Positions 3,239-41,104 of a DNA stretch of 43,937 nucleotides are shown here, in pieces. The stretch lies in the UHGV virus genome UHGV-0384622; one strand, given 5' to 3'. How positions within the stretch are numbered: the stretch's first letter is position 1; every line of letters starts with the position of its first letter. The position numbers and the translations under genes are program-made. Origin of the DNA: a virus. The notes under the pieces are model-generated. The model did not search any database and was not told the DNA's origin. It saw only the letters and a program-made list of their open reading frames with translations.

Positions 3239-3285
3239 ATCACAGGGATGGTTATTGAGTCTGATGCACATTACGGAGGATGTTC

Positions 3286-3981: not shown

Positions 3982-3982
3982 G

Positions 3983-5506: not shown

Positions 5507-6247
5507 TTATATTGAATTAGAATCCTCTATGTACCAAATTTCCTGCGCTCCATTATCCCGGCTATGCCAGCAAGCGCCCTCCAGCGGTCCATCCGGTGTC
5601 GGGTCAAAATAATACCAATCGCCAGAACCGTCATCCGGGTCACATATGCTACCATTCCATCGGTGCCAGCTGGTGCAAGCATATCCGTCCTTATTAAACA
5701 GATACCAATGGTGATTTATGACACACCACTTATTAGCCGGGTAGGTCCCATCTGGCCTGCGGTACCACCAACCGTTATTATCTTTAATCCAGCCAGTGCG
5801 TTCCTCCGTCACCCAAGTTTTCATAAATTCATCCGGGTTACGATACAATTTCTTGATTCCAGATGTACTACTTCCCCAGTCTGGAAGCTGAAAATGCGGC
5901 TTGTCTACAATAGACTTCCAATTTCCTCCCCACTCAAGACCAATGGATACACCAATAACACCCACGTGGTTAAAAAAGCCACCAATTTCGTTATAGGCCC
6001 CAGCTCCATCATTGCGGAATATATCAAAAGCCGTTCCCCACTGATGATAGGAGCTGTAGCTACTGCCAGGAGCATTAGTGACAATATTCCCTGGCTGAGT
6101 TCGACCCTGGGCGTATAAAGCATCCTGTTCTGCCACGGTCCGCAGTGTTTCGCCTATCTTAATTTTCAATCCCTGTTTATTGCATTCATCCACCAACTGG
6201 CCCGCTAAAAGTTGCAAGCGTGGATGGCACAATGTAATATCTCTCAT
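5507..6247 (-). CDS. endolysin: M15 (VanY-like) peptidase domain plus CW_binding_1-type cell-wall-binding repeats
   Basis: LHPRL...SYHQWGTAFD (M15 zinc-site pattern); C-terminal GW/WYY repeats (GWIKDNNGWWYRR, WYLFNKDGY, DWYYFD); GGAGG RBS inside the end of the upstream gene. Confidence 0.8.
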   Translation of the reverse strand: MRDITLCHPRLQLLAGQLVDECNKQGLKIKIGETLRTVAEQDALYAQGRTQPGNIVTNAPGSSYSSYHQWGTAFDIFRNDGAGAYNEIGGFFNHVGVIGVSIGLEWGGNWKSIVDKPHFQLPDWGSSTSGIKKLYRNPDEFMKTWVTEERTGWIKDNNGWWYRRPDGTYPANKWCVINHHWYLFNKDGYACTSWHRWNGSICDPDDGSGDWYYFDPTPDGPLEGACWHSRDNGAQEIWYIEDSNSI

Positions 6248-6249
6248 AA

Positions 6250-6375
6250 TCATCCTCCGATTATACTGTTTTTCTGCTGCTCTGTAATCCATCCAATTGA
6301 CACAGCCCGGTTGAGTTCAGCAACAGTTAATGGCCCTTTACCATTGTTATATAGCCTTTTTAAAGTTGTATACAT
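6250..6375 (-). CDS. XkdX-family small phage protein (41 aa; below the ORF-track cutoff)
   Basis: MYTTLKRLYNNGKGPLTVAELNRAVSIGWITEQQKNSIIGG fits the XkdX pattern (..Y..G.......AV..G.IT.......I.G); GGAGGTG RBS; its stop overlaps the lysin start. Confidence 0.6.
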   Translation of the reverse strand: MYTTLKRLYNNGKGPLTVAELNRAVSIGWITEQQKNSIIGG

Positions 6376-8743: not shown

Positions 8744-10656
8744 TGAACAGCTCCGGTCAGCAATGCAATATAATTATTGTATTCTATACCATACCTTTCA
8801 TGTTCCGAAAGATAGCTTACAAGTTGATAATCAAGGTTCATTTCATCTGATATTTCTTTGACATCTTGGGCAATGAACCCCGTCCCCCTAATTCCATTGT
8901 TAATCAACGTGTAAGCGACAGGTTTCAACCTTTTTATTACTTCAATACATGTATCTGGGGGCATGTCCTGTATATCCCGCTTTTCTCTCCTGTCTGATAT
9001 TTCTACCCATCCACCTCCATATACAATTCCGGTACAATATATGCTCCGGGTGTTTATCTCTTCAAGCGAACCTATGCTTGCCTCTATTTCTCCATTACAA
9101 TTGATTCCATTTTCAGCGTATATAATGCCTGTAGCATTCAATGTAGCTGCTGTGATTTTTGCATTTTTGGCTTCCACAATTCCACCAGAAGAAACAGTGA
9201 AATTACCATTTCCTATATTTATACTCCCACCAACAATTGACGCACCGGACACAGTACCCGAAAAAGTAGCATTTCCACCACTATCAACAGTCATATTTTT
9301 AGCATTGATTGTAAAATGTCCTGTTGTAAGTTCGATGGCATTTCCTGTCACCTTTAATTCGGAGTTTATTTGTGATGTAACATCTCCCTTTTTCACCATA
9401 AGCAAAATTTCCTGGGCTGTTTGTGTGAATTTTGATGTAGTTTCCCGTTCAAGATCGGTCAATTCATTTGATACTTCCTCAACCGTGCGCTTTAATATGG
9501 CGGAAAGCCCTTTCACTTGAATGATTTCGCTTTCTATGTTAAACTTTCTTTCGAGTTCTTGACTTCCTGTGCTAGAAAAATCATCCATTGAACCCTGTAT
9601 GCCTGTCAAATCTCGCTTCATGACAATGGTATTTACAGTTCCATCCGAAGTCAATATCTTAATTCTGTCCCCTACTTCAATCCATGGTGAACCATTTGTT
9701 GATATTTCTGCCGGACAATAAGATATGCCGCTTATCACAGATTTTATGTTATTGGCAATAGCAATCATTTGGGATGTATTTTTCCCATATACAAGTGGAT
9801 TCCCTTCAATGATATAGATATTATTTCCATCACCTTCACTGGTTCCACCTATATCCCCCTCTTCTTGCTGTATTTTTACCGTATCAATATCTGGCACATT
9901 ATATTCTTCACTCTCAACGGTCTTATATACCATAATTTCTATACTTATATCATCTGTCTTTGGTACAGAAACATATCGTAGTTCACCATTTTTAGTAATA
10001 TTTCCAAATGTGCCGTTGATTTGGCATATATACTTTAATACATCCCTCCCATTAAGTGATGATGGTTCAAGTGTCTTTTCCACTTCCATATCATCATTTA
10101 TTAATTCCGTGTTTTCTACTTCATTTACTCCAACAAACTCACACAAAGAATTTCTAAATGCTTTTAATGTCATCGGAAAGGACAAAAGATTATACCACCC
10201 CGATACATCCGCATCAAAGCGTTTCATACGGTCATATGCAATGATTTTTCTGGTGTCCTTATCTTCCTGCTTGGGTGTGGAATCAACCGTAAAAAGCCCC
10301 AATGTAAGTTCATATTCTCCGAGCTGTTCAGATACAAGGAATTCTTTGCCCGCAATATTTTTTGACAATCCTGACACAACAATTTCAAACTGAGAGCATT
10401 CACATGCACCAAAGTTTAAATCTTCATCCGAGCACAGACTTTCCGTGATCTTCATGCTATCAGACTGTATCATATCATCGGAAATGACGAAATCTATCGC
10501 ATCAGAATCCATTTCTGACGGATAAAGCTGTTCTGATGGAAATAATGTCTCTGATGGGTACAATGCTCTGTAATCGTCTTTATAAAACGTTAATTTAAGT
10601 CTTTTCCCACCATATGAATTATATAAATCCTTGAATTTCTGTTCTACATCTAACAT
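8716..10656 (-). CDS. tail-associated fiber/spike protein with C-terminal peptidase S74 intramolecular chaperone auto-processing domain
   Basis: 646 aa; C-terminal ISDRREKRDI...KPVAY...GFIAQDV...LDYQLVSYL...ALLTGAVQCILERL matches the endosialidase-type chaperone domain; lies 2 genes after the TMP. Confidence 0.7.
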   Translation of the reverse strand: MLDVEQKFKDLYNSYGGKRLKLTFYKDDYRALYPSETLFPSEQLYPSEMDSDAIDFVISDDMIQSDSMKITESLCSDEDLNFGACECSQFEIVVSGLSKNIAGKEFLVSEQLGEYELTLGLFTVDSTPKQEDKDTRKIIAYDRMKRFDADVSGWYNLLSFPMTLKAFRNSLCEFVGVNEVENTELINDDMEVEKTLEPSSLNGRDVLKYICQINGTFGNITKNGELRYVSVPKTDDISIEIMVYKTVESEEYNVPDIDTVKIQQEEGDIGGTSEGDGNNIYIIEGNPLVYGKNTSQMIAIANNIKSVISGISYCPAEISTNGSPWIEVGDRIKILTSDGTVNTIVMKRDLTGIQGSMDDFSSTGSQELERKFNIESEIIQVKGLSAILKRTVEEVSNELTDLERETTSKFTQTAQEILLMVKKGDVTSQINSELKVTGNAIELTTGHFTINAKNMTVDSGGNATFSGTVSGASIVGGSINIGNGNFTVSSGGIVEAKNAKITAATLNATGIIYAENGINCNGEIEASIGSLEEINTRSIYCTGIVYGGGWVEISDRREKRDIQDMPPDTCIEVIKRLKPVAYTLINNGIRGTGFIAQDVKEISDEMNLDYQLVSYLSEHERYGIEYNNYIALLTGAVQCILERLGE

Positions 10657-10670
10657 ATCAGCACCTACAC

Positions 10671-11093
10671 TTAATACTGAATCATTTCCAGGGTAAATGC
10701 CTCATATTGCATGTCACCTGTCTCATTGTCATATATATGGCTAACTGCATATTCCGTATCAGGAACATAAAAATCACCCGTTCCATACACACATGTATCC
10801 AAGTTCCAATATGTAACTGAATACTTACGCTGCGTTTCATCCAAAATTCCGTCCGCCTTTATGCTGTTCCAAAGGTCTTTTTCTCGCTGAGTCAGCGGTC
10901 GGATTTCTAGATTTAATGTCGTTTTATAATTGGGAGAGGTAACACGCTGAAGAGCCTCCGTGTTATCCCTCCATGCTTTTTTTTCAATTCTCTGGTCAGG
11001 AGTTGAGGCATAACGGGTAAGAAAAGAATTGGGAAGCTGATGGCTTCCAAACATAACTAGATATCCCCTGTAATCCTTCTGCATACCGCTCAC
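10671..11093 (-). CDS. putative distal tail protein (Dit-like, small)
   Basis: immediately downstream of the TMP; called by position only. Confidence 0.4.
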   Translation of the reverse strand: MSGMQKDYRGYLVMFGSHQLPNSFLTRYASTPDQRIEKKAWRDNTEALQRVTSPNYKTTLNLEIRPLTQREKDLWNSIKADGILDETQRKYSVTYWNLDTCVYGTGDFYVPDTEYAVSHIYDNETGDMQYEAFTLEMIQY

Positions 11094-14294: not shown

Positions 14295-14849
14295 TTATAG
14301 CCATTTTTCGATACTGTTAATTTCTTTTTGTTGTTTCTCGCTGTATATCTTCTTAAGCTTTACCAATTCTGGATTGCTTCGTTCAAATTCCTTTTCCCAC
14401 TTTTCTAGTTTTTTTCCTCTGGCTCGTTTCTGCCGGATTGCCCACACCTGAGATACAAGTCCATCTCCAATTTCCATGAAATACCCCATGAATGTCCACC
14501 AGTGCAGGTATGGCACAGACCTTACCTCCATCCCAGCAATCTTATTGACTGCCGGGATAATAATGGGAGCATCCTGTTCCCAGTCCATGGTTTTAGGCTG
14601 TGGTTTGCCAGGAGGCAGATTGTAATCAATGAAATCAACTGCCTTTTGGCACGCCTCCGACTTAGCTTCTGGAGGAATGTCTTGATAGTTCGGGTACATG
14701 ATTCGGAACATTATTTCCTGTTTTTCCCAGTCATTGAGTTCCGGGTCAGACATATCAATCAAAATATCAATAATCACTCTAAAATCGCTTTCAATCGCAT
14801 AGTCTTTTCCTGCAACCTTAAGTGACTTAGGCAAATCGTATGTATTCAT
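14295..14849 (-). CDS. tail assembly chaperone (Gp15-like)
   Basis: position between the major tail and TMP genes; 184 aa; overlaps the upstream gene by 4 nt. Confidence 0.55.
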   Translation of the reverse strand: MNTYDLPKSLKVAGKDYAIESDFRVIIDILIDMSDPELNDWEKQEIMFRIMYPNYQDIPPEAKSEACQKAVDFIDYNLPPGKPQPKTMDWEQDAPIIIPAVNKIAGMEVRSVPYLHWWTFMGYFMEIGDGLVSQVWAIRQKRARGKKLEKWEKEFERSNPELVKLKKIYSEKQQKEINSIEKWL

Positions 14850-15247
14850 CGGCCATATTTTTCGGTATATTTCTTAATCCGGGCTTCACTTTTCTTAATT
14901 CTGGTTTTCATTTCAGATTCAATAAACTTAACCAATGTATCAAGCACATATTCCATATGGAAGGTTCCGTCCGAACGCGGGGAAAGTGGGTTGCAATGCT
15001 TGAATAATTCTTCTGAGGCGTTATCTGAGCCAAGAAGATAGTTAAATTGCTTCTTAATTTCATCAGATATAGCAAAGAAATCTGCTTCTTTATCAACATC
15101 TATATCATTGAAATAGTTGAGTACATTCTCACAACGCTTGGCAATATCTAAATCAGATGGATTCCACCAAAATCCACCCGTCACTTCCTTTCCCGAATTT
15201 ACAATCTCAATCCATTCCCTGTCATTAAGGGTAATCTGTCTTGACAT
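14846..15247 (-). CDS. tail assembly chaperone (first of pair)
   Basis: position; 133 aa. Confidence 0.5.
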   Translation of the reverse strand: MSRQITLNDREWIEIVNSGKEVTGGFWWNPSDLDIAKRCENVLNYFNDIDVDKEADFFAISDEIKKQFNYLLGSDNASEELFKHCNPLSPRSDGTFHMEYVLDTLVKFIESEMKTRIKKSEARIKKYTEKYGR

Positions 15248-15257
15248 AATTCCTCCA

Positions 15258-15782
15258 TTAATCGCTCAGACTACCACTAGGGGCCGTGGTAAACTTCTTT
15301 GTTTCAACATCCCATGTGCCTTTAATGCGATTTCCAGCTTTATATACTGTAAATGGTGTCTGAATGCCGGATGTATCACCGCCTACACTATTGGGGATAA
15401 CATATACATCTTCACGGTATGCCCATACCACTGTTGGCGCTGTTTCTTCGTCTGCTCCAGGCTTAAGAAGTACATCCACCATAGATGTTTTGCATTTATC
15501 TCCGGTCGCCCTGGTATTGGCCAGTTCCATAATCTTGTTTGACAAGGCATCATCATAGTTTTCGTAATAGTAAGGGTCTACATCGGACTGCACTTCATAT
15601 CCACTATGCTGTACAGACTGTTCCCCAAGAATATTTTTTGTCACCTCAACATCTGGGTTCAATTCTTCATTGTATTCTTCCAGATTCTTTCCCAGCCTTG
15701 CATATTCTGTTTTTGCGTATGTAACATCAAAAGCAGCATCTAAATAATGTGCCAGGTATTTGCGTTCAACCATTATTTGTCT
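15258..15782 (-). CDS. major tail protein
   Basis: ATG at 15782 with AGGAGA RBS; size, and position upstream of the chaperone pair. Confidence 0.6.
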   Translation of the reverse strand, partial: RQIMVERKYLAHYLDAAFDVTYAKTEYARLGKNLEEYNEELNPDVEVTKNILGEQSVQHSGYEVQSDVDPYYYENYDDALSNKIMELANTRATGDKCKTSMVDVLLKPGADEETAPTVVWAYREDVYVIPNSVGGDTSGIQTPFTVYKAGNRIKGTWDVETKKFTTAPSGSLSD

Positions 15783-30236: not shown

Positions 30237-30539
30237 TCATCCTTTCCACCTACCAAACAGTGTCATTAACCGCCTATATTCATCCAACGTTTTTCTTTGA
30301 TACCCGTAAAAATCATCCCGCTTAATTGGTATATTCTTTCTCTTGCTCAACTTGTCATATCCGATATTACTTACAAGGCTTTCGTATATCTCCACCTCCA
30401 GTCCAGGAGCCGAGGATATAGCACACTGGAACAATGTAAGCTTATCTTCTACGCTGGCGGTCTGGCAGTATTCTTTTATGCGTTTGGCTTCATCATCGGT
30501 AATGCCATAATCACTATAGTTCTTGTCCCTGGTCCTCAT
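30237..30539 (-). CDS. hypothetical protein (AT-rich segment)
   Basis: 100 aa ORF; its stop overlaps the ATG of a further 53-aa ORF (30079..30240). Confidence 0.4.
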   Translation of the reverse strand: MRTRDKNYSDYGITDDEAKRIKEYCQTASVEDKLTLFQCAISSAPGLEVEIYESLVSNIGYDKLSKRKNIPIKRDDFYGYQRKTLDEYRRLMTLFGRWKG

Positions 30540-30550
30540 AGCCCTCCTTC

Positions 30551-31597
30551 CTACACATTAACTCTTTCTCTTACTGAACGAAGAGTGCGCGGGTTAGACT
30601 GTGCATAATAACGTGCCGTAACTCCTGGGTCTGCATGGCCCATAATTTCCTGTATGGTCCCAATATCAACTCCTCTGTTTTTCAGATTCATTCCCAGCGT
30701 CTTGCGTGACTTATGCGGATATACCCGACATGTTAGACCGGCTCTTTTCCTTATGGTTTTCAATATCGCCCGAAATCCACAAGTAGTCATCTTTCCATAC
30801 GGTTTTCTGGAGCGTGGGAACATATATGGACAATCATCTTTCCTGCTGTCAAAATACAGGCCGTAGTAATGACGCGCATCATCATCCAGATAGATAGTCC
30901 GATATCTTCCGCCTTTCTCTCCCTGTATCCAAATATCGCCGGTTCTCATGTCTATCTGGTCCAGAGTTATTTCTGCAATCTCCCCTATCCTGGCTCCAGT
31001 ACTTCGAAGTACCTCCAGCAAGGCCCTCTCGCGGATATTTTTGCACGCATCCCTTAATCTTGCAGATTCTTCCGGGCTGTAATAATCAATTGGTTTAATT
31101 GGTACTTTCTTGGCAGGTATTGGTTCCACCGGATTATCTGTAATAAGCTTTTCAAGGCGCATCCATGTAAAGAATGCTGATAGAAAACGGCGTTCATTGT
31201 TGTAGGTACTGGGCTGATTTTTCTTTCCTCCGCTGGACACATTCCTAATTTCGTATCGGGATAAATACCAATCAATATCTGTGGTATCCATCTGGTCCAA
31301 TGATTTTGTGTTTATTTCTGTCAACAATCTTCGTATGGCATTCAGATAGTTTTGTTTGGTTCCTCTTGCTAAATCGCGTTTTTTAATCAGGAATAATTGT
31401 ATTATGTACTGATTCCGCTGGCTTATATCATCCTTTCTTTCTGCCGGAAGAGTAGTTATTTCCTCCATATTTACCCTTACCAATTCCTGCTGCATTACAT
31501 TTTGCAGAATGTTAAGAGTCTGCTGCTCCACAATATATAAGGACATGGCTACCAGTACATTGTTAATTATTTCAGCTTTAATTGTCTGTGTACTCAT
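30551..31597 (-). CDS. second tyrosine recombinase (XerC/D-like or phage integrase family)
   Basis: GGAGG RBS before ATG at 31597; motifs RSTGARIGE, HKSRKT, GHADPGVTARYY (R..HxxR..H..Y). Confidence 0.8.
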   Translation of the reverse strand: MSTQTIKAEIINNVLVAMSLYIVEQQTLNILQNVMQQELVRVNMEEITTLPAERKDDISQRNQYIIQLFLIKKRDLARGTKQNYLNAIRRLLTEINTKSLDQMDTTDIDWYLSRYEIRNVSSGGKKNQPSTYNNERRFLSAFFTWMRLEKLITDNPVEPIPAKKVPIKPIDYYSPEESARLRDACKNIRERALLEVLRSTGARIGEIAEITLDQIDMRTGDIWIQGEKGGRYRTIYLDDDARHYYGLYFDSRKDDCPYMFPRSRKPYGKMTTCGFRAILKTIRKRAGLTCRVYPHKSRKTLGMNLKNRGVDIGTIQEIMGHADPGVTARYYAQSNPRTLRSVRERVNV

Positions 31598-31755
31598 AAT
31601 TATATCCTCCTCATTCGTATTGATTTTCACGTCTGAGTGAGATATAATATACTCAGACGTATTTACGAGAGCGGTGGAATCATCTTGGCGGGTGACCATC
31701 GCTCAGTTTTCATTCTGTGCATATATGTGTTCCTTTATCTATTTTTCTTTAATCT

Positions 31756-31793
31756 GAAACTGCTAATACTACTGATATCAGTTTAGCAGTTTC
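31756..31793. promoter_or_regulatory. 38-bp palindromic site GAAACTGCTAA-tact-ACTGATATCAGT-TTAGCAGTTTC
   Basis: 11-bp inverted arms plus a central 12-bp perfect palindrome; overlaps the stop of the 31778.. gene; upstream of recombinase 2. Confidence 0.5.
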
Positions 31794-32014
31794 TCTATGA
31801 TAAATTTCGGTACATAAACCACTCCATTTTCTTCGTTGTCTCTTAAGTAGTGTTTTAAATCTGCTTCCATAATAATCCACTTTTTCAGCGCTTTAATACC
31901 CATCTCGCAGGCCTCAAGCCCTTCCAATGTTTGATGTGCACCATCAGATTTAGCTACTACCTGTCTATCAAATACCGCTAATATATTCATAGCCTCTGTT
32001 TTTGTCATGATCAT
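31778..32014 (-). CDS. hypothetical protein
   Basis: 78 aa ORF. Confidence 0.4.
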   Translation of the reverse strand: MIMTKTEAMNILAVFDRQVVAKSDGAHQTLEGLEACEMGIKALKKWIIMEADLKHYLRDNEENGVVYVPKFIIEKLLN

Positions 32015-32041
32015 TCCCTTTCTGGATTATAATTTAAAATC

Positions 32042-32254
32042 TTAATTCTCCAACTCCTCAGCCCAGGCAGTATGGTTGTATGTATAAACTACATTACCCG
32101 TAACAATGGCCTCAAGCCCCTCCCATTCTTCTACATTTTCAAGAGACAGTTCTTCGCTATTCAATGCACAAGCGATAGCTTCTTTCTCGTTTTCCGCCTC
32201 GACTTCCACATAACATGCTGCAACTATCGGTACCATAACTCGATATTTTTTCAT
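32042..32254 (-). CDS. hypothetical protein
   Basis: RBS-supported start at MKKYRV. Confidence 0.4.
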   Translation of the reverse strand: MKKYRVMVPIVAACYVEVEAENEKEAIACALNSEELSLENVEEWEGLEAIVTGNVVYTYNHTAWAEELEN

Positions 32255-32315
32255 CTTTATTCCTTCCTTCGTTACTCCCGGAAATATCAGTTTTGTTGTG
32301 TAACGATACACATTG

Positions 32316-32513
32316 TTACGCAACGTTATCATTAAGATACCTGTCCAGGGCCTGCCGGATCACCCAACTTATAGCCCTGTCCTCTTTCTGGCAGTAGGCG
32401 GTTACCCGTTTTAGTTGTTCCGGGTCCATGCTTATGTTCTGCCGGATATACTTCTTATTGGTCTCTTTCTTTGGTCTTGCCATACCTCTGCCCCTTTCTG
32501 TGTATGTATACAC
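32316..32513 (-). CDS. ribbon-helix-helix (CopG/Arc-like) DNA-binding protein
   Basis: ISMDPEQLKRVTAYCQKEDRAISWVIRQALDRYL. Confidence 0.5.
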   Translation of the reverse strand: MYTYTERGRGMARPKKETNKKYIRQNISMDPEQLKRVTAYCQKEDRAISWVIRQALDRYLNDNVA

Positions 32514-32533
32514 AATTTTTGATCAATATCAGT

Positions 32534-32827
32534 TTAGCGACCTAACTCGTCAGCATAAATAAGCCCAGAACAACCAAACTTATTACCATACCAATAACAA
32601 TATTTTCCGCTTAAAATCGGATAATCCTCACATTTTAATTCATACGGTGCTATTACTTGCGCCTTATAAACTCCATCTGATATTGCTCCGTACTTTTTCC
32701 TTTGTGACTCTTTTTCCAAACTGTTATGCCTGACTTTTATAATGGCGCTGTCTCCGACTTCCAATCTCCTTAAAGGACGCTGCCAGTCATACTCAAATTC
32801 TTTCAAATTTTCCTCCTTCTCAATCAA
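32534..32827 (-). CDS. hypothetical protein
   Basis: TTG start (AGGAGG-supported alternative TTG 8 codons in). Confidence 0.35.
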   Translation of the reverse strand: MIEKEENLKEFEYDWQRPLRRLEVGDSAIIKVRHNSLEKESQRKKYGAISDGVYKAQVIAPYELKCEDYPILSGKYCYWYGNKFGCSGLIYADELGR

Positions 32828-32830
32828 ATG

Positions 32831-33046
32831 CTAATACTGCTGATTATCATTTAACGGACAAATTCCAATTACAGAACAAGATATACTGTCACACCATATC
32901 GGACATTTTTGGCAATAAGTTCCGTTAAAATCCTTAGGCACAACAACCGATATTGTCATTATCTTTTCATCTTCTGTGATTTTTGAAATTTTACATTCAT
33001 TACTTTTATCTGTTTCATACAAACCACCATTTTTTATAAATTTCAT
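32831..33046 (-). CDS. small Cys-rich protein
   Basis: CQKCPIWCDSISCSVIGICP. Confidence 0.4.
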   Translation of the reverse strand: MKFIKNGGLYETDKSNECKISKITEDEKIMTISVVVPKDFNGTYCQKCPIWCDSISCSVIGICPLNDNQQY

Positions 33047-33252
33047 ATTTTCTACCTCTGGAAAACTTAATATCTCTTAAAAGTATCATCATAATCAAAG
33101 CAGTAGCAACTTGGGTGATTAACATCCACCTGTTCTCTTATATCAACATTACAAATTACCATTCCTTCTGTTTCTTTCTCACATTCACAATATATGCAAT
33201 ATTTACATATATATCTTTCTTCTGTCTTCTGGTATCATTCTTTATCCTCCAG

Positions 33253-33426
33253 ATACTAATCTTCAAAACATTTTTTTGTTTCCACTGGAACATCAAAAAC
33301 ACTTATCTTATTGCAATACCACTGCCCCCTATGGAATGCTTGTAGATTGCAGTGCCTACAATTTTCGCAGCTTTTTTCCCGTTTCTTTGTTTCAATAATC
33401 CCCAACAGCTCTTTGTTTTTAATCAT
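33253..33426 (-). CDS. small Cys-rich protein (57 aa; below the track cutoff)
   Basis: GAGGT RBS; MIKNKELLGIIETKKREKSCENCRHCNLQAFHRGQWYCNKISVFDVPVETKKCFED. Confidence 0.35.
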
Positions 33427-33443
33427 ACCAATACCTCAAAATT

Positions 33444-33674
33444 TTAAATTAATGGGATATCTGCTTCTTCAATGGCTCGATTTAGAAGTGATCTATAATC
33501 ACCCAAACAAGCCACAGTGTCAATCAACAACCCTGAAAATGATTTTACGCCTGAATAGCATTCAATGCTTTCCTCAATGCTATCGTCAATATCTCTTGAT
33601 TTATCTACTTTTTCAAGATCAGACATTAGGCTCTCTATTCGTTTCACCATCTCACGCGTCTGTTTTACTTTCAT
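33444..33674 (-). CDS. hypothetical protein
   Basis: 76 aa ORF. Confidence 0.4.
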   Translation of the reverse strand: MKVKQTREMVKRIESLMSDLEKVDKSRDIDDSIEESIECYSGVKSFSGLLIDTVACLGDYRSLLNRAIEEADIPLI

Positions 33675-33697
33675 GTTATTTACTCCTCTGTAAAATT

Positions 33698-33889
33698 TTA
33701 ATCTTCCTGCTTTTTAGAATAATTTAAGCAGTATGTCAAATTGTCAAGCAATGCATTTTCTCCACATGGTATATCGTTTTCCGAATGTGATGATATTAAT
33801 ACCACGGATAACTTACATCCCATTTTCTTATTATGATTTTCGCAATCATGATTCCCGCATCTTACATATGCCACAGCTGGTTCCTCCAT
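33698..33889 (-). CDS. small Cys-rich protein
   Basis: VRCGNHDCENHNKKMGC. Confidence 0.4.
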   Translation of the reverse strand: MEEPAVAYVRCGNHDCENHNKKMGCKLSVVLISSHSENDIPCGENALLDNLTYCLNYSKKQED

Positions 33890-33914
33890 AATGTTAATAC
33901 TGCTGATTATCAGT

Positions 33915-34157
33915 TTAATGGATTATCGCCTGACCACATGTAGAGCAACGCCCTGTATTTACACAGTCTTCCGCAGTTGATTCACCACAATTAGGGCAGA
34001 GATAAAATCCCCTATCATACGCACATCTCTTGTAAATATCCTTTCGCATAGATACTATAGCGATTTTATATGCCTCCTCGATATCAGAAAAACTTTCACC
34101 CTCATTAGGGATTGTTGTTTTTCTGCTAACAATTTCTATTGCCTTTTCAATTTCCAT
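33915..34157 (-). CDS. small zinc-ribbon protein (CPxCG-type)
   Basis: LCPNCGEST...RCSTCGQ. Confidence 0.45.
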   Translation of the reverse strand: MEIEKAIEIVSRKTTIPNEGESFSDIEEAYKIAIVSMRKDIYKRCAYDRGFYLCPNCGESTAEDCVNTGRCSTCGQAIIH

Positions 34158-34212
34158 TCGCTACAGTCCTTTCTCAAATCCTAATTTTCATCGTTTAATA
34201 CAATATTTCCTT

Positions 34213-34938
34213 TCAGTCATTTATCCAGCCTATCCCCTGGCTAAGTAATTGGCAGGCTATCGTACAGTCTTCCATAACCTCCAGGTCCATCCTTCCACGG
34301 TTCGGGTCTAACTCGTCCAGATATACTCCCCCGATACAACTATGCCCTATCTCCCTCTCCTGCCTAGCCCGGCGTTCAAATACCTCCGGGAAATCAATCC
34401 GAATCTTATTCCAGTATCCCATGCCGCCTTTTACGCAACCAATGCAGTTGTTGTTTGGATACCCCATGTCATACATTACTGGGCGTTTCAGCCCCAGTTT
34501 ATCGGCTATCCCGTGGCACTCTGCTTTTGTCAATCCATTCTCAATCAACGGGAACTCATGGTCGTAGTCAGAAAGCGCTTTAACAACTGCGTCTGCTCTG
34601 TGCATCTCATTCACATCATAACCCCACACATATGTATGATGGTCTGGATTCGCTGCCTCCCAGTCTCTGCGTACCTGTTTTTTCAACCATTTAGTGCAGG
34701 GTGCTCCAAAAGCTGTGTTTATGCATCTGGTATTTTCAATTACATCATCCACATCTTTGTATTTATCTGATTGTATAGGCTCAATCTTTCTTCCCAAAAT
34801 CGCCTCGCAATCCTTCAAAAATCTCAGACTATCAGGATGTTGATTTTCGACATGAGTGTAAATAATTTTATCAATATCCTTAGCCAAGTAACACGCCACA
34901 AAAGACGATACTCCGGTGCTAAACCAACATACTTTCAT
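34213..34938 (-). CDS. PAPS-reductase-family PP-loop protein with a degenerate ATP-binding loop
   Basis: WFSTGVSS in place of SGGxDS; ECHGI (similar to the ECGLH motif) and NNCIGC. Confidence 0.55.
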   Translation of the reverse strand: MKVCWFSTGVSSFVACYLAKDIDKIIYTHVENQHPDSLRFLKDCEAILGRKIEPIQSDKYKDVDDVIENTRCINTAFGAPCTKWLKKQVRRDWEAANPDHHTYVWGYDVNEMHRADAVVKALSDYDHEFPLIENGLTKAECHGIADKLGLKRPVMYDMGYPNNNCIGCVKGGMGYWNKIRIDFPEVFERRARQEREIGHSCIGGVYLDELDPNRGRMDLEVMEDCTIACQLLSQGIGWIND

Positions 34939-35094
34939 AGGTACCTCCTAAAATGAATAATTACTATTATCGCTCACCAGCGCTAATGTATTGACTGGTA
35001 AATCCTGTAATTTTACCATTCAGAAAGTGATCACTTTACCCGGCCAGGACTGTTTTACTTTCTATTTCTTTAATTGCTTAAATAGCGATTTTGG

Positions 35095-35397
35095 TTAACA
35101 AATTGGCGACTGAAACGAGCATATTCCATCCAGATAACACCGGTTCGCAAACTCCTCTGCCTCCCCGCTCTCCAGTGCTTTGATTGCCATCTTATATGCC
35201 TGTATCTGCTTTTCTGCGTCTGCCCGGAATGCCAACTTGTCTTGTATCGTGTTTCTGGCAATTCCCATACGCACCATCTGTTCCCATCCACCATCCGTAA
35301 TTTGGTGGTGGTATGTATTAATGTGTTCCTGCAATATGCCTATGGCTTCTCTTTTGTCAATTGTCATACTTTTCCTTCCCTCGCTCCCCATAATCAT
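35095..35397 (-). CDS. hypothetical protein
   Basis: ORF; likely start MTIDKRE. Confidence 0.4.
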   Translation of the reverse strand: MIMGSEGRKSMTIDKREAIGILQEHINTYHHQITDGGWEQMVRMGIARNTIQDKLAFRADAEKQIQAYKMAIKALESGEAEEFANRCYLDGICSFQSPIC

Positions 35398-35719
35398 GTT
35401 CTTTTTCCTCTTCCCAGATTACCTTAATAACCTCCACTTTATCGAGCGGAATGTAGAATGATCCTTGAGCCTCCCACTCTCCAGCCTTCCACTGCTGTTC
35501 AAACTCTTCCAAACTATCAGCCAGCAAAAATCCGGCTTCCTCTTCTGTCTGGTACATAGTTCGCATCATTGCATCGTCCGATTCATCCGGCCAGCTGAAC
35601 AGATGATACATCTCGTAGTTGTCATAATCCCATAACGTTAACGCTACTACATACCCATCTATCGGCCATCCAGTGCTGTTTACCCGTCCTTCAACGAGTT
35701 TTGGTCTATATCCCTTCAT
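35357..35719 (-). CDS. hypothetical acidic protein
   Basis: 120 aa ORF. Confidence 0.4.
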   Translation of the reverse strand: MKGYRPKLVEGRVNSTGWPIDGYVVALTLWDYDNYEMYHLFSWPDESDDAMMRTMYQTEEEAGFLLADSLEEFEQQWKAGEWEAQGSFYIPLDKVEVIKVIWEEEKEHDYGERGKEKYDN

Positions 35720-36021
35720 CCCTCTGCCTCCTTATATGGATCCGGTGCTGGATGCCATGCAATCACATCAAGAAGTCCTTCATCATCAACCTTCCACCAT
35801 TCTTCTCTAACATCATCATAATATCCAACTTCAACATATCCACGTCTAACCGTAACGTGTACTATCTCTCCACACGGAGGAAGGTCCCTTTCAACCGGAA
35901 CCCACTTATTCTCTGTTTTTGCGGTTGGAATTTTTCTTATATCCTCGATTATGTACTCTTCTCCCTCATATCTTGCAATAAGCAGTTTTTTTACATCATC
36001 CGAATCAATTAGTCTTCCCAT
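35716..36021 (-). CDS. DUF551-like phage protein
   Basis: C-terminal VIAWHPAPDPY similar to the DUF551 pattern (V..WMPLPEP). Confidence 0.45.
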   Translation of the reverse strand: MGRLIDSDDVKKLLIARYEGEEYIIEDIRKIPTAKTENKWVPVERDLPPCGEIVHVTVRRGYVEVGYYDDVREEWWKVDDEGLLDVIAWHPAPDPYKEAEG

Positions 36022-36046
36022 TCTGCTTCCTCCTCTAAATCTGTGT

Positions 36047-36208
36047 TTATTCTTTTACCTCCCACCAAGAACAATCTAAATGACTATTTTTCCAATCCTC
36101 ATACGAATCTTCAACTTCTTCCTGCGATGCATCATCATCAAATTCAAATTCTTCTTCATGGGTTGCCCCGGCAAATCCTGTCCCCATATAAAAGTGATAT
36201 TTTTTCAT
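36047..36208 (-). CDS. small acidic protein (53 aa; below the track cutoff); identical copy at 37180..37341
   Basis: AAAGGAG 8 nt before ATG; MKKYHFYMGTGFAGATHEEEFEFDDDASQEEVEDSYEDWKNSHLDCSWWEVKE. Confidence 0.35.
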   Translation of the reverse strand: MKKYHFYMGTGFAGATHEEEFEFDDDASQEEVEDSYEDWKNSHLDCSWWEVKE

Positions 36209-36391
36209 TCAGTTTCTTCTCCTTTCAGAAATGGGCATTTTGATTACTTGGACGCCTGGAATGATCCGGGCATATTTCCGTCCTATCATAGGCTGGACGT
36301 AGATATGCTTGTGTCATGGGCGATGGATGTTTTTCCATATCTTTTATTGCTGCCATTCTTTGGCGTTCTGAATTTTCGCTATATTGATTTT

Positions 36392-36646
36392 TTATTTTAT
36401 TTTCCGGCATTCAAGCACATCTCCCTTCTCAAAAACGTAATGACATCCAGGTATTGTAATCGTCCTTGGGCATTCATCCGTATAATCAATCAGTCCCTTA
36501 TCTCTCATGTCACGTAAATATCCCCATATGGTAGAACTAGATGTATATCCAACTCCATCCCCAATCTCCCTGGTAGTAGGAGGATAGTTATGGATCACCA
36601 TGTAGGACTTAATATAGTCAAGTATACGCCTATGTGCTTCCTTCAT
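36392..36646 (-). CDS. LexA DNA-binding-domain-only protein (no S24 peptidase domain); identical copy at 37525..37779
   Basis: YPPTTREIGDGVGYTSSSTIWGYLRDMRDKGLI closely resembles the LexA N-terminal winged helix. Confidence 0.6.
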   Translation of the reverse strand: MKEAHRRILDYIKSYMVIHNYPPTTREIGDGVGYTSSSTIWGYLRDMRDKGLIDYTDECPRTITIPGCHYVFEKGDVLECRKIK

Positions 36647-37158
36647 CTGTCCCCTCCCCTACCCAGTCCTGTACCTGTTTTAGCATCAATGCATCGTAGT
36701 CCGTATCTCGCTGGTCAAAATTATGAAACTGGTTCTTGCTTACAGTAGCCTTCTTATCTGGCTTCACAACTGGTTCCCTGTAGTCTGTTTTGAGATAATC
36801 GTCAAACGAGGTATCTGGTCCAAAAAATGTTGCTGCATGTTTTACAAACTGCTCCTGGGTACCTAATAACTCACACTCTCTGGCATATCTTTTAACTGCT
36901 GTCTCCAGCTCGTCCTCTGAAAAACCATCCTTTAGGCGGGCATTGTACGCTTTATATGCTTTCGCCTTTTCTTTTTTTCTCGGGTATACCTTCCAGATTT
37001 CCTCAAAACGCACACAATATTTTTTATTACTATCATTTACATTATCATTATCATATACATTATCATTATCATGTTTTTTTGCTTCGGTTTGCTTTTCAAA
37101 AAAACCATTTGCTTTTTTTGACTCCGAATTTTTATCAAACGAAGCACTTCCTTTTGGC
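36630..37158 (-). pseudogene. duplicated C-terminal fragment of the replisome organizer gene (no ATG; internal GTG at 37013)
   Basis: identical to the 3' part of 37763..38530; an in-frame TAA lies 10 codons upstream of the junction. Confidence 0.45.
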
Positions 37159-38291
37159 CTTCCTCCTCTAAATCTGTGTTTATTCTTTTACCTCCCACCA
37201 AGAACAATCTAAATGACTATTTTTCCAATCCTCATACGAATCTTCAACTTCTTCCTGCGATGCATCATCATCAAATTCAAATTCTTCTTCATGGGTTGCC
37301 CCGGCAAATCCTGTCCCCATATAAAAGTGATATTTTTTCATTCAGTTTCTTCTCCTTTCAGAAATGGGCATTTTGATTACTTGGACGCCTGGAATGATCC
37401 GGGCATATTTCCGTCCTATCATAGGCTGGACGTAGATATGCTTGTGTCATGGGCGATGGATGTTTTTCCATATCTTTTATTGCTGCCATTCTTTGGCGTT
37501 CTGAATTTTCGCTATATTGATTTTTTATTTTATTTTCCGGCATTCAAGCACATCTCCCTTCTCAAAAACGTAATGACATCCAGGTATTGTAATCGTCCTT
37601 GGGCATTCATCCGTATAATCAATCAGTCCCTTATCTCTCATGTCACGTAAATATCCCCATATGGTAGAACTAGATGTATATCCAACTCCATCCCCAATCT
37701 CCCTGGTAGTAGGAGGATAGTTATGGATCACCATGTAGGACTTAATATAGTCAAGTATACGCCTATGTGCTTCCTTCATCTGTCCCCTCCCCTACCCAGT
37801 CCTGTACCTGTTTTAGCATCAATGCATCGTAGTCCGTATCTCGCTGGTCAAAATTATGAAACTGGTTCTTGCTTACAGTAGCCTTCTTATCTGGCTTCAC
37901 AACTGGTTCCCTGTAGTCTGTTTTGAGATAATCGTCAAACGAGGTATCTGGTCCAAAAAATGTTGCTGCATGTTTTACAAACTGCTCCTGGGTACCTAAT
38001 AACTCACACTCTCTGGCATATCTTTTAACTGCTGTCTCCAGCTCGTCCTCTGAAAAACCATCCTTTAGGCGGGCATTGTACGCTTTATATGCTTTCGCCT
38101 TTTCTTTTTTTCTCGGGTATACCTTCCAGATTTCCTCAAAACGCACACAATATTTTTTATTACTATCATTTACATTATCATTATCATATACATTATCATT
38201 ATCATGTTTTTTTGCTTCGGTTTGCTTTTCAAAAAAACCATTTGCTTTTTTTGACTCCGAATTTTTATCAAACGAAGCACTTCCTTTTGGC
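37159..38291. repeat. tandem direct repeat, copy 2; followed by a third CTTCCTCC at 38292-38299 (8-bp microhomology)
   Basis: as above. Confidence 0.85.
37525..37779 (-). CDS. LexA DNA-binding-domain-only protein (upstream copy)
   Basis: identical to 36392..36646. Confidence 0.6.
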   Translation of the reverse strand: MKEAHRRILDYIKSYMVIHNYPPTTREIGDGVGYTSSSTIWGYLRDMRDKGLIDYTDECPRTITIPGCHYVFEKGDVLECRKIK

Positions 38292-38530
38292 CTTCCTCCA
38301 AGTTTCCCAGCTTCTCTTCTGGATTCTACCATCTTCTGGTACTTCTGATTATCTCTATCAAGCTGAGCCTTGATGAAGCTAAAAGCCATTTGTGTCATTC
38401 CATCCATCTGTGGAAGTTCTTTATCCGCTGCATATAACATGATAGCAGTAAATAGATTTCCTCTCTGCTCCATGTTCAATAATAAAATTTGGTCAATATT
38501 TGCTGTATACATTACAAAACTTTCTCTCAT
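37763..38530 (-). CDS. phage replisome organizer / replication initiator-like protein
   Basis: N-terminal NIDQILLLNMEQRGNLFTAIMLYAADK... typical of replisome-organizer N-terminal domains; 255 aa. Confidence 0.55.
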   Translation of the reverse strand: MRESFVMYTANIDQILLLNMEQRGNLFTAIMLYAADKELPQMDGMTQMAFSFIKAQLDRDNQKYQKMVESRREAGKLGGRPKGSASFDKNSESKKANGFFEKQTEAKKHDNDNVYDNDNVNDSNKKYCVRFEEIWKVYPRKKEKAKAYKAYNARLKDGFSEDELETAVKRYARECELLGTQEQFVKHAATFFGPDTSFDDYLKTDYREPVVKPDKKATVSKNQFHNFDQRDTDYDALMLKQVQDWVGEGTDEGST

Positions 38531-38910
38531 AATCCTGCACCAAACATACTCAATTGCCCAGGAAATCCGGTATCTTTCCTTTTAGTGTTCTTATTTTGTT
38601 TTATAAAGAGCTGTGCGCCACGCTCTGCCGCCTTTATGCTCTCTATCCGGCTATTCTGGCTTTCCATCCATTTATAGGCTTCTTGCCGTCCCTGTGCATC
38701 GTCACGGGGTACATAGTAACCTTTGCCTGTTGTCAAGGAAAGAATCACTTTATCATGCCTTAACATCTCTATCGCGGTTCTTACATCTCTGTCCTTTTCT
38801 CCTGTCTTGGATACTAATTCATCCCGGTTCAATGCATTCCCTTTCCCTACAAGGAGTGCATTATATACCCTTGCTTGAACATCTTCACTAACAGTTCGCT
38901 TATTCTTCAA
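38527..38910 (-). CDS. hypothetical winged-helix DNA-binding protein (TTG start, AAAGGAGG RBS)
   Basis: 127 aa; overlaps the replisome organizer start. Confidence 0.4.
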   Translation of the reverse strand: MKNKRTVSEDVQARVYNALLVGKGNALNRDELVSKTGEKDRDVRTAIEMLRHDKVILSLTTGKGYYVPRDDAQGRQEAYKWMESQNSRIESIKAAERGAQLFIKQNKNTKRKDTGFPGQLSMFGAGL

Positions 38911-39056
38911 ATAATCCCTCCTTTCGGGCCGGGTAAAGGAGGTTTGATAGGTCCCGGCCCAGGGTCAGAAAGTATATCATGACATATCAGCATTCTGACC
39001 AGTACTCATTTCCGTTGTATGTATCATCCCACAAGGGGGAATAGATACCAAAAATG

Positions 39057-39503
39057 TCAGTTTAAATGAACTACTTCTGCCTTTTTCACAGGCTGGCTAC
39101 AATATTCCACCGTTACATTCCGCTGATATGAAAACACACTGCCACAGCAAGGACACTCACACTCGTCTTCATCATCGTCAGCTTCCCAACTGTCACCATT
39201 TTCATATCCACAATATGGACAAGTAATCTGTCCTGTGTAATCTTTATCTTCTGGCTCCTCGCCATCAATAAAAACTTTCTGCAACTTTAATTTCTTAACA
39301 TATGCCGTATGATACCTCCCCCCTTTTCCGGCTAGGGAGGTGACGCCATATGCAGTGTTGTCTATGATTAGCGTGTCCCCAATGTTGATTTCCTTGTCGG
39401 TCTCTATAATGGGCTTTATCCCATTATCTTCAGGAGTAAGTCCGTTCATGCTGAAATCCCACGAACGCTTACTACCCAAATCTGCATAATCAAATATTTT
39501 CAT
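39057..39503 (-). CDS. hypothetical protein with C-terminal Cys cluster (CPYCG...CECPCCG)
   Basis: 148 aa ORF. Confidence 0.4.
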   Translation of the reverse strand: MKIFDYADLGSKRSWDFSMNGLTPEDNGIKPIIETDKEINIGDTLIIDNTAYGVTSLAGKGGRYHTAYVKKLKLQKVFIDGEEPEDKDYTGQITCPYCGYENGDSWEADDDEDECECPCCGSVFSYQRNVTVEYCSQPVKKAEVVHLN

Positions 39504-39534
39504 CTTCCACCTCTGTTAAATCTTAATTTTGCTT

Positions 39535-40671
39535 TCAAGGCATCATCTCCAGGAAACCCTTTATGGTCATCTGGCCACCGTTCTTCGCCTCTGCCTGTTT
39601 CATCTTCTTAAAATCGTTATATCTCTGTCTGTACCTATAGCTGTCACCAAATATATTCCATGCAGCCTTAACAACATTCGGTTCGTATGCTCTTATCTTT
39701 TCCAAATCCGCTACCGCTTTAGAGGAAATACTACACCCACAACATCCTGTACGTGTCAACCCATACACCTCGTAAGCGTCCGAATATCTTATCTCATACC
39801 GCTCTTTATACCATGCCTTATCTGCGTCCGACACATAATACAATGGCTTTAATCGGAACTGTCCGCTGCTCGTTTCTGAAAAACACATCGTTCCATTTGC
39901 ATCTTCAGATTTTGGCACGGAGCGCATGCCTCCCTCGTCCCGGCGTTCTCCTGTAATAACCATTTCATATCCCGCTTGTACCTTATGGGCTATCTGTTTC
40001 TTGCAGTAGTCACAGCATTTTGCGCTGATTTTAAAATCGCACGGATTTTCTTTCATAAACTCGTATAGGTATTTCGATGAATCAATCACTAACTGTATAT
40101 TTGGCCTTGGTTCCCCATCTCGGTTACAACAACACAGAAAATTGATTCCCTGTTCTGATTTCGGATACCGCTCTCGCAATTCCTCTCTCTTTGCCATTTT
40201 ATTCTCCGCATTGTCATATTCTTCCCTGATAGAAAGTGGAAGCTCTTTCTTCTGCACCGTTTCCATTGCGCTTGATACAATTTTTGAAATGAATGGGATA
40301 CCATATTCCCTCGTAGACTGTACAATGTTTTTCTTAGGTCTGTACTCCGTTATCTCAACACCATATTTATTTTTAACATCTATTACATGGTCTTTTGTCG
40401 CCTTCATTTCAAGCCCAGTATTGAAAAAACAGTATTTCACCTCAGGTAGGCCGAACAACGTTCTTGTCCGTTCTATCAAATCGAGCATAATATCACTGTC
40501 ACTTCCACCGGAATACGAACATATTGCATTTGGATGCTCTTTTAATCTCCTTGCAATAATCGACTGTATTGCCTGAAATTTACTCGGCGCATCAAAATCA
40601 GCGTACGCCGGGCGTTCAGTGTATACTCTTGAATAATATACTTCCTTACTATTTTTATTTGTCTGTCTCAT
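39535..40671 (-). CDS. PAPS-reductase-family PP-loop ATP pyrophosphatase with C-terminal Cys-rich (DUF3440-like) extension
   Basis: canonical SYSGGSDS PP-loop; CCCNRDG, CCDYCKK, TGCCGCS clusters; the ATG is preceded by A9 instead of an SD. Confidence 0.65.
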   Translation of the reverse strand: MRQTNKNSKEVYYSRVYTERPAYADFDAPSKFQAIQSIIARRLKEHPNAICSYSGGSDSDIMLDLIERTRTLFGLPEVKYCFFNTGLEMKATKDHVIDVKNKYGVEITEYRPKKNIVQSTREYGIPFISKIVSSAMETVQKKELPLSIREEYDNAENKMAKREELRERYPKSEQGINFLCCCNRDGEPRPNIQLVIDSSKYLYEFMKENPCDFKISAKCCDYCKKQIAHKVQAGYEMVITGERRDEGGMRSVPKSEDANGTMCFSETSSGQFRLKPLYYVSDADKAWYKERYEIRYSDAYEVYGLTRTGCCGCSISSKAVADLEKIRAYEPNVVKAAWNIFGDSYRYRQRYNDFKKMKQAEAKNGGQMTIKGFLEMMP

Positions 40672-40744
40672 TTTTTTTTTAAGAAGCCCGGTATACCCTT
40701 ACCCCTGCAGGAGGCTGGCTCCTTTCTTAGTTTTCAAAATTTTA

Positions 40745-40918
40745 ATTATTGAGCAAATCACCCTCAACCTCAAAATATATGTACCGACTACTCTGTTTAA
40801 CCGGTTTTTCAATGTCCACCCACTTTTTTAATAATCTGGCATATATCCGCAGTTCTTTTACTTTAACCTTAAACCTGGTCCAAGTCTTTCCATCTCGCTC
40901 AAAAACTCTTGTCTCCAT
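40745..40918 (-). CDS. small hypothetical protein (57 aa; below cutoff)
   Basis: RBS-like AAAGGAAAAGAGG; METRVFERDGKTWTRFKVKVKELRIYARLL... Confidence 0.3.
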
Positions 40919-40924
40919 CCTCTT

Positions 40925-41104
40925 TTCCTTTCTCCGGTCTTATATTTTTTCTATTGGACTTATTTGTTTTTCAGCATCAATAGCAATTAAAATCGCTACA
41001 TTAGCTTTGGCTTCTGACATTCCATAATCATTAATCAGAATATTACGAACCGACCAAATAGAAGAAGAAAGTGTAAAAAGCAAATTCTGAATTTCTTGAT
41101 TCAT
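40925..41104 (-). CDS. small hypothetical protein (59 aa; below cutoff)
   Basis: GGAGA RBS; MNQEIQNLLFTLSSSIWSVRNILINDYGMSEAKANVAILIAIDAEKQISPIEKI. Confidence 0.3.

Follow-up and report, generated by a model that had tools for sequence, protein, structure and literature searches.

Two genes of the 43,937-nucleotide (nt) virus genome UHGV-0384622, a stretch that was analysed over its whole length and is referred to below as the window, encode proteins related to 3′-phosphoadenosine 5′-phosphosulfate (PAPS) reductases: P1, of 241 amino acids (aa), at 34213..34938, and P2, of 378 aa, at 39535..40671, both on the minus strand. With moderate confidence, these are regarded as separate, stand-alone PAPS-reductase/PP-loop enzymes that would transfer sulfur to DNA as a means of counter-defence. 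The two do not depend on each other, and neither belongs to the assimilatory PAPS reductases. An earlier note, made from the sequence of the window alone, had recognised both open reading frames (ORFs), which are real, and had interpreted them as a catalytic and a pseudo-catalytic partner in DNA modification. Its observations were confirmed in part and its interpretation is partly supported, but the pairing and the pseudo-enzyme status of P1 are refuted: P1 and P2 are common phage accessory genes of known, abundant families, and not a new two-part DNA-modification system.

P1 belongs to a large phage family with a conserved CysH-type loop

The protein encoded by P1, the N-terminus of which reads MKVCWFSTGVSS, is an SspD-like member of the PptA family with a PAPS-reductase fold. 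It is homologous over its full length, at 39% identity, to PptA of Vibrio phage vB_VhaP_VH-5 (PDB 21fy chain C; GenBank QGH73774). With phmmer, residues 29-263 of this chain match residues 3-231 of P1 (E 2.4e-49), and a P1 profile matches the chain with an E of 3.8e-57; chain C is itself 100% identical to a hypothetical protein of this T7-like phage. Both proteins begin directly with the nucleotide-binding loop (FSCGAPS in PptA, FSTGVSS in P1) and both contain GAxCT, NNNCxGCVKGGMGYWN and a C-terminal CxxxC, the tail cysteine pair being kept in PptA as ECSLVC. The settings of the two genes differ, as PptA is encoded by a lytic phage of a gammaproteobacterial host, between the RNA polymerase and structural genes.

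P1 also matches the PHROG family phrog_424, annotated as PAPS reductase (E 4.1e-39), and the SspD model of PADLOC (E 2.4e-9; 35 bits over approximately 190 residues), to which PptA is matched with an E of 1.5e-11. At E<=1, nothing was found in P1 with Pfam, PF01507 included, or with NCBIfam. Its family is large, with 6,920 matches in 90%-identity clusters and 1,306 clusters at 50% identity (E<=1e-3). Conservation was assessed in an alignment (A3) of 60 diverse representatives that are 34-57% identical to P1.

The nucleotide-binding loop of P1, S7-T-G-V-S-S12 (34903..34920, minus strand), follows a family signature S-x-G-x-x-S, in which S7 and G9 are each conserved in 59/60 representatives and S12 in all 60. 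The second position of the loop is mostly Cys, Ala or Gly, and Ala, Ser or Thr occupies the fifth, where Asp is found in 2/60 only. The SGGxDS of canonical PP-loop ATP pyrophosphatases is thus present in P2 and not in P1 (STGVSS), and the earlier observation that its Gly and Asp are replaced in P1 agrees with a profile alignment that sets P1 S7-T8-G9-V10-S11-S12 on P2 S54-G55-G56-S57-D58-S59. The reading of this replacement as a degeneration does not hold. When A3 was compared with Escherichia coli CysH by hhalign, an alignment that spans the first 59 columns only, P1 S7-T8-G9 fell on CysH S53-F54-G55 (the CysH query sequence was checked against 2o8v, E 1e-166). Because active CysH has such a loop, an S-x-G loop without the second Gly and the Asp does not mark a pseudo-enzyme, and the P1 loop is a conserved, CysH-type family signature that has not decayed.

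Conservation extends to the cysteines. Cys81 (34696..34698, minus strand; 59/60) is the first of three conserved cysteines proposed as iron-sulfur (Fe-S) ligands, and lies near K86, which is invariant among the representatives. The other two are within N162-N-N-C165-I-G-C168 (34435..34455, minus strand), the most conserved motif of the family (N164 59/60, C165 58/60, C168 60/60), with N164-C165-x-G167-C168-x-K170 conserved around the CxGC. A further pair, C225-T-I-A-C229 (34252..34266, minus strand; 58/60 and 59/60, respectively), lies in the C-terminal tail. The four family motifs (S-x-G-x-x-S, GAxC, NNNCxGC and the C-terminal CxxxC) are all present in P1 and kept in 58-60/60, and further conserved residues include D36, R39 and F40 (HPDxxRF), G78-A-x-C81, G106, E111 and R114. 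A correspondence of these cysteines to the Fe-S ligands of adenosine 5′-phosphosulfate (APS) reductase rests on motif position and not on a significant alignment. The motifs quoted for P1 in the earlier note, WFSTGVSS and NNCIGC, are present by translation, as is SYSGGSDS in P2. In ECHGI, H142 is found in 14/60 and C141 in 45/60; ECHGI was rejected as a catalytic motif, being not conserved and distinct from the C-terminal ECGLH of CysH.

The AlphaFold2 (AF2) model of P1 has a mean predicted local distance difference test (pLDDT) score of 86.5 and is confident to approximately residue 226, with a pLDDT below 50 for residues 227-241, where the tail is disordered. Its best Foldseek matches in the PDB were PAPS reductase, CysH, APS reductase and LarE, an Fe-S sulfur transferase. 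The PDB set used for Foldseek runs to 2026-04-08, and 21fy is newer and lies outside it.

Two types of variant were encountered within the P1 family. In at least five 50%-identity clusters (P0266, P0273, P0280, P0301 and P0365, of 453-618 aa), a LAGLIDADG intein interrupts the protein precisely between NNN and C165, a position typical of a catalytically critical site, which suggests such a role for the CxGC. Additionally, in one representative, P0299 (537 aa), the P1 domain is fused to a D12-class N6-adenine DNA methyltransferase; no fusion of this kind was found among cultured phages by tblastn. Taken at the level of sequence, the size of the family, its solved homolog, its near-invariant Cys, Lys and Arg residues and the inteins at the CxGC point to a functional protein.

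P2 is a canonical PP-loop protein with an APS-reductase-type cysteine site

P2 is a PAPS_reduct-domain protein with a canonical PP-loop. PF01507 was its only Pfam match at E<=1 (E 4.5e-13), and it also matches phrog_424 (E 2.5e-22), the PADLOC model of BrxP (E 3.1e-8, N-terminal part only, at positions 129-212 of the 779-position model) and that of SspD (E 0.003). Its loop, S54-G-G-S-D-S59 (40495..40512, minus strand), lies within SYSGGSDS; S54, G55, G56, D58 and S59 are invariant in 46 homologs, with position 57 being Ser in 41 and Ala in 5. Other motifs of the family alignment (A2) are N84-T-G and G241-E-R-R-x-E...R250.

Two cysteine clusters of P2 can be placed on APS reductase by phmmer. 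C219-C220-D-Y-C223 (40003..40017, minus strand) is invariant in A2, and its C219 and C220 align with Cys139 and Cys140 of the Pseudomonas APS reductase 2goy; C310 and C313 of C310-C311-G-C313 (39733..39744, minus strand) align with Cys228 and Cys231. These four 2goy residues are taken here to be the Fe-S ligands, and thus the CC...CxxC site of APS reductase is kept in P2, whereas P1 has only C81 and C165xxC168. A third cluster, the invariant triple C180-C181-C182 (40126..40134, minus strand), lies in an inserted helical segment. The AF2 model (mean pLDDT 78.5) consists of a PAPS-reductase core, a helical insertion at approximately residues 128-215 and a long C-terminal helix. Foldseek ranked APS reductase 2goy and PAPS reductase/CysH first, followed by TtuA, TilS and FAD synthase. 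No match of P2 to the PptA chain was obtained by phmmer or profile searches.

CysH and APS reductases (2goy, 1sur, 2o8v) are therefore the best structural matches of both proteins, and the possibility that one or both are working PAPS/APS reductases (cysH), acting as auxiliary metabolic genes that boost host sulfate assimilation, needs to be weighed. PAPS reductase is the name given by PHROG, NCBI and JGI, the virome literature treats the gene as a sulfur auxiliary metabolic gene, and P1 has a loop of the CysH type, cysteines of the Fe-S type and a tail that bears cysteines, as in APS reductase. However, the catalytic cysteine of CysH and APS reductases is C-terminal, in an ECG[LI]H motif. The last cysteine of P2 is C313 of 378 residues, and because there is none beyond it, P2 lacks the catalytic tail cysteine; it differs from CysH also in its true SGGxDS loop and its helical insertion of approximately 90 residues. 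The tail of P1 reads EDCTIACQ, with no ECGLH. Neither protein is thus an ordinary assimilatory reductase with its catalytic residues intact. In NCBIfam, P2 scores far under the curated equivalog cut-offs (36.8 against 154 bits for PRK02090, 30.9 against 235.3 for TIGR02055 and 14.2 against 254.2 for TIGR02057), and P1 falls below the thresholds of NCBIfam and Pfam alike. P1 has HPDxxRF where hhalign puts the DTG segment of CysH. The methyltransferase fusion in the P1 family, and the position of the genes among replication and anti-restriction genes, where they are exchanged as accessory cassettes, also speak against a role in sulfate assimilation, which is considered highly unlikely. P2 is instead predicted to be a PP-loop enzyme that adenylates its substrate and has an Fe-S site of the APS-reductase type.

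Alternatively, one or both enzymes could thiolate or otherwise modify tRNA, in the manner of TtcA, TtuA or TilS, and so escape tRNA-targeting defences or tune translation. P2 joins SGGxDS to Fe-S-type cysteines, as do TtcA and TtuA; its Foldseek matches include TtuA, NcsA and TilS (E 5e-5 to 2e-3), and its profile matches TilS in the PDB (E 9e-4). Yet the TtuA, NcsA and TilS matches rank under the APS/PAPS reductases, no THUMP or TilS C-terminal domain was detected with Pfam or NCBIfam, and the fusions and the matches to defence models indicate DNA rather than RNA. A function on tRNA is accordingly judged improbable, though a little less so than one in sulfate assimilation.

A PAPS_reduct plus DUF3440 architecture, which had been suggested for P2, is not supported, as Pfam gives PF01507 only; an IbrA-like protein was rejected on the same grounds, with no DUF3440 in P1 or P2 at E<=1.

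P1 and P2 are distant members of one superfamily

The earlier note had described the two proteins as paralogs of the same family. BLASTP of P1 against P2 gave nothing significant (best E 0.035, out of register), and the relation was not found when the shallow family alignments A1 and A2 were compared by hhalign. With the deeper P1 profile, A3, 63 N-terminal columns align to P2 (probability 69%, E 4.6e-5). P1 and P2 also match phrog_424 alike, which is a broad PHROG family. Judged by these comparisons, they are distant members of one superfamily and not paralogs.

P1 and P2 are acquired independently

P1 and P2 are unlinked and were acquired separately, each as a single-gene accessory cassette that now lies in the variable portion of the early region. 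The co-occurrence of the two families, which had been put forward as a check of the proposed pair, was examined in IMG/VR: a P1 homolog was present in 0/80 loci around P2 homologs (52 of which have at least 6 kb downstream), and a close P2 homolog in 0/80 loci around P1 homologs. No conserved neighbours were found for either gene in these 80 loci each, and gene neighbours as functional partners were rejected for both.

Comparison with closely related phages leads to the same picture. The sibling L260 is 99.65% identical to the window over 30237-37166 and 99.9% identical over 37159-39029 (blastn), and has P1 without P2. In it, approximately 20 nt replace window positions 39030-40937, a 1.9-kb accessory module (39030..40937, minus strand) that holds P2, a 58-aa ORF (40742-40918) and, 32 nt downstream of P2, a gene for a 148-aa protein with a CPYC...CPCC zinc-ribbon motif (39057-39503, minus strand; phrog_14328). 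The zinc-ribbon ORF shares the indel of P2 relative to L260, yet it is not transferred along with the latter elsewhere: what phages on other backbones, namely L082 (99.6%) and L265, have in common with the window here is confined to the P2 gene (39518-40740). Similarly, the smallest P1 cassette shared with otherwise different phages (L002, L003 and L262; blastn) is 34173..35091 on the minus strand, at approximately 99.8% nt identity; for instance, L003 shares this segment at 99.8% plus a few patches. Among 40 backbone relatives that were anchored on the HNHc_6 gene and had enough flank, a P1-like gene was found in 1/40 and a canonical PAPS-like gene in 0/40, and unrelated sequence occupies both the slot of P2 and the region of P1 in L163, a related contig.

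Both cassettes are widespread: the assembly collection has 442 blocks with the exact P1 protein and 319 with the exact P2 protein. Eight places encoding the exact P2 protein were inspected (L252-L259, 11.1-15.9 kb), and P1 was absent from all of them. Here, P2 lies directly after the replicative helicase, as the first gene of an array of small accessory ORFs. This P2-headed array includes genes for Lar restriction alleviation, N6/N4 and C5 DNA methyltransferases, Sequestin and ASCH/DUF3850, and looks like an anti-defence hotspot.

These data bear directly on the proposal that P2 is the catalytic, and P1 a degenerate, non-catalytic, component of one minimal DNA-modification system. In its favour, the two genes share an early region, Gly2 and Asp5 of SGGxDS are missing from the loop of P1, a second genome (L265) has both genes, and a canonical PP-loop PAPS-like gene is found upstream of P1 in 9/58 loci. 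Against it stand the empty counts in IMG/VR, the nearly identical sibling and the eight P2 loci without P1, the conserved CysH-type loop of P1 and the inteins in its active-site motif. PptA, moreover, is a single stand-alone gene in its own phage, since VH-5 carries one PAPS-like gene and no second, and P1 resembles it in this respect. A search of the PDB with a joined query of the P1 and P2 neighbours for the partner chain of 21fy returned none, the top matches being linker artefacts or LexA-type helix-turn-helix (HTH) proteins. With the P1 loop conserved, the features of the family pointing to function and the genes unlinked, a catalytic/pseudo-catalytic pair is scarcely credible.

A residual co-occurrence signal

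Not all observations are equally easy to reconcile with strict independence. In a profile search, a canonical PP-loop gene was found 0.24-7 kb upstream of the P1 homolog in 9/80 loci. These nine correspond to 9/58 loci with at least 7 kb upstream of P1 (approximately 15%), or to 5/22 clusters at 95% P1 identity, compared with 0/40 control backbone loci; the nominal Fisher p of 0.004 is inflated, since the lineages are not independent and five of the nine loci are from one lineage. The upstream genes encode SGGKDS or SAGLDS loops with CC and CxxC and fall into at least four subfamilies (for instance L028 8796-9761, L039 8352-9446, L007 7214-8317, L015 4969-5937 and L068 2745-4277). In addition, L265 (GCA_027662505.1, JAQDJP010000014.1) contains P1 at 10001-10726 (100% aa identity) and P2 at 14427-15563 (98.1%). 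Its gene order differs from that of the window, as P2 is 3.7 kb downstream of P1. P2 is preceded there by a small terminase gene and an 81-aa large-terminase fragment, and the locus could be a rearranged or composite prophage.

Two explanations other than chance can be considered. The first is optional cooperation or stacking, in which the enzymes work alone but are enriched together by countering different phosphorothioate defences, or by one aiding the other. The upstream genes, present near P1 and missing from the control, and the joining of P1 and P2 in two gene orders (the window and L265) are compatible with this, but the non-independence of the lineages, the 80 P2-type loci without a nearby P1 homolog and the frequency of both cassettes in one gene pool are not in its favour, and it is regarded as unlikely. 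The second, still less probable, is that PptA-type proteins and canonical SGGxDS/Fe-S proteins form an optional two-enzyme phage sulfur-insertion pathway without Dnd, Ssp or BREX partners, in which one enzyme may activate DNA and the other deliver sulfur. Such a pathway would explain the PP-loop genes of at least four subfamilies near P1, their absence from the control loci and the two gene orders. However, with both cassettes so frequent in a single gene pool, chance combinations of P1 and P2 are expected, and chance assortment is a sufficient explanation for their co-occurrence.

Proposed function in DNA sulfur chemistry

By analogy with characterised systems, insertion of sulfur into the DNA backbone, or interference with phosphorothioate defence, would be the most likely activity of P1 and P2. 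Each enzyme would draw sulfur from a host cysteine desulfurase, probably IscS; a nucleic-acid oxygen would be activated via a nucleotide-bound intermediate; and sulfur would be inserted into DNA by a phosphorothioate-type chemistry, as for SspD, DndC, BrxP and TdpC. The outcome would be phage DNA that is shielded from phosphorothioate-based host defences, or interference with these defences.

The tie to DNA sulfur chemistry is drawn because of the SspD and BrxP matches, the D12 methyltransferase fusion in the P1 family and the accessory array, with Lar and DNA methyltransferases, that P2 heads in other phages. SspD, DndC and BrxP, the sulfur-insertion subunits of Ssp, Dnd and BREX type 4, belong to a common superfamily with P1 and P2, and differ from them in location, as P1 and P2 sit in a phage and not in a host defence island. 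DndC, of the PP-loop family, has been described as holding a 4Fe-4S cluster on three cysteines and relaying sulfur through a Cys dyad, a layout that C81, C165 and C168 of P1, together with the pair C225/C229, may parallel. With regard to counter-defence, resistance of Vibrio podophages to Dnd has been traced to a PAPS-Dam fusion of 479 aa (Piel et al., bioRxiv 10.1101/2021.05.05.442762). In the PAPS-Dam protein p0018 of the Vibrio crassostreae podophage 44E38.1, for which there is genetic evidence of countering Dnd, the PAPS domain is at the extreme N-terminus. P0299 has the same architecture of a PAPS-type domain and a methyltransferase, the comparison being one of architecture, but P1 itself is without a methyltransferase domain. 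PAPS reductases are also present in Aca-regulated anti-defence operons, and gut Bacillota carry phosphorothioation systems, according to the literature. For the Tdp system, tdpC alone is described as enough for phosphorothioation.

Partner genes of the known systems were sought. PHROG and Pfam scans of neighbouring genes revealed no sspA, sspB or sspC partner, nucleoside triphosphatase (NTPase) or desulfurase. No DndC model was among the NCBIfam or PADLOC matches (E<=1), and dndD and dndE were absent among the genes scanned. Similarly, DUF4007 was not found in P2, nor were brx genes (brxC, brxZ, brxL) in the neighbouring genes scanned. The earlier suggestion of DNA-modification or anti-restriction enzymes without partner genes stands as the best functional guess, in view of SspD, BrxP and the D12 fusion, but not as a pair. 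Its other suggestion, a queuosine-type pathway, found nothing in support: QueC and the 7-deazaguanine pathway were rejected, with no QueC family match in Pfam or NCBIfam and no QueD, QueE or DpdA partners, and QueC appeared only as a weak fold match of P1 (Foldseek rank 42, E 6e-3).

Several points weigh against the sulfur-transfer proposal. The Dnd, Ssp and BREX type 4 systems depend on a P-loop NTPase partner for phosphorothioation, none was seen among the window genes examined, and gut isolates with a lone PAPS-reductase gene and no NTPase partner gave no phosphorothioate signal. The SspD and BrxP matches are weak and partial, and NCBIfam (E<=1) gave neither a match for P1 nor a DndC or SspD model for P2. 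P1 is without the Mg-binding Asp of ATP-pyrophosphatase loops, and may therefore take up an adenylyl compound made beforehand instead of splitting ATP. No paper giving an activity for PptA, P1 or P2 was found, the literature on the name PptA yielded nothing relevant, and PAPS reductases are missing from a curated list of 268 anti-defence proteins. Finally, given the PP-loop genes near P1 and the presence of both genes in L265, strict independence of P1 and P2 may not be the whole story.

Phage genome and early region

The window is a complete temperate phage genome, of the siphovirus type, from a gut Lachnospiraceae host. Its bases 43937 and 1 are contiguous at 5074-5075 of L163, and because its end and start are thus joined, it represents a complete, circularly permuted genome. 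Gut Lachnospiraceae (Faecalicatena, Blautia, Ruminococcus and Qiania) are the source of the named homologs. No match was obtained in a cultured-phage collection by megablast with window positions 34000-41000.

Genes for an antirepressor, an HTH repressor with an IrrE-like protease, an integrase and an endolysin are located at 541-6292, with the lysogeny integrase at 4130-5218, and terminase, portal and head genes are at approximately 25-29.7 kb. A second tyrosine recombinase of 382 aa (30551-31699, minus strand) lies where the early region ends, a short way upstream of the terminase genes; in many related phages, a recombinase of 340-348 aa is called at the matching position, at the end of the early-gene array. 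The early region encodes Gam-like and HNHc_6 proteins, a DnaD-like replication protein and a LexA-type winged HTH (wHTH) protein, and one of its genes matches a PHROG family that carries an exonuclease annotation. As previously noted for the replication module, P1 and P2 bracket it, P2 being upstream and P1 downstream of the DnaD-like gene (37763-38530).

Between the two genes, the sequence is perfectly duplicated in tandem at a period of 1133 nt (36014-37166 and 37147-38299; identical over 36026-37166). The repeat unit includes two small ORFs and the gene for the LexA-type wHTH protein, all of which are thereby doubled, and a C-terminal fragment of the DnaD-like gene for replication is left at 36630-37013. 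Because the sibling L260 has a single copy of the unit, the duplication is either a very recent event or an assembly artefact.

Implications for phage cysH annotation

The result is mainly corrective: the supposed partner with a degenerate P-loop turns out to be an ordinary and conserved representative of a phage family with a wide distribution. Virome studies routinely count genes of these types as sulfur-metabolism genes (cysH). This label is doubted because P2 lacks the tail cysteine, and because of the likeness to SspD and BrxP, the Dam-class fusion, the inteins at the CxGC and the anti-restriction gene setting. On these sequence features, the cysH label is probably wrong, and nucleic acid is the probable target of proteins of the P1 and P2 types, likely as part of the contest over phosphorothioate defence. 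Genes of both types are very common in gut phages, so the question of their label reaches beyond this window.

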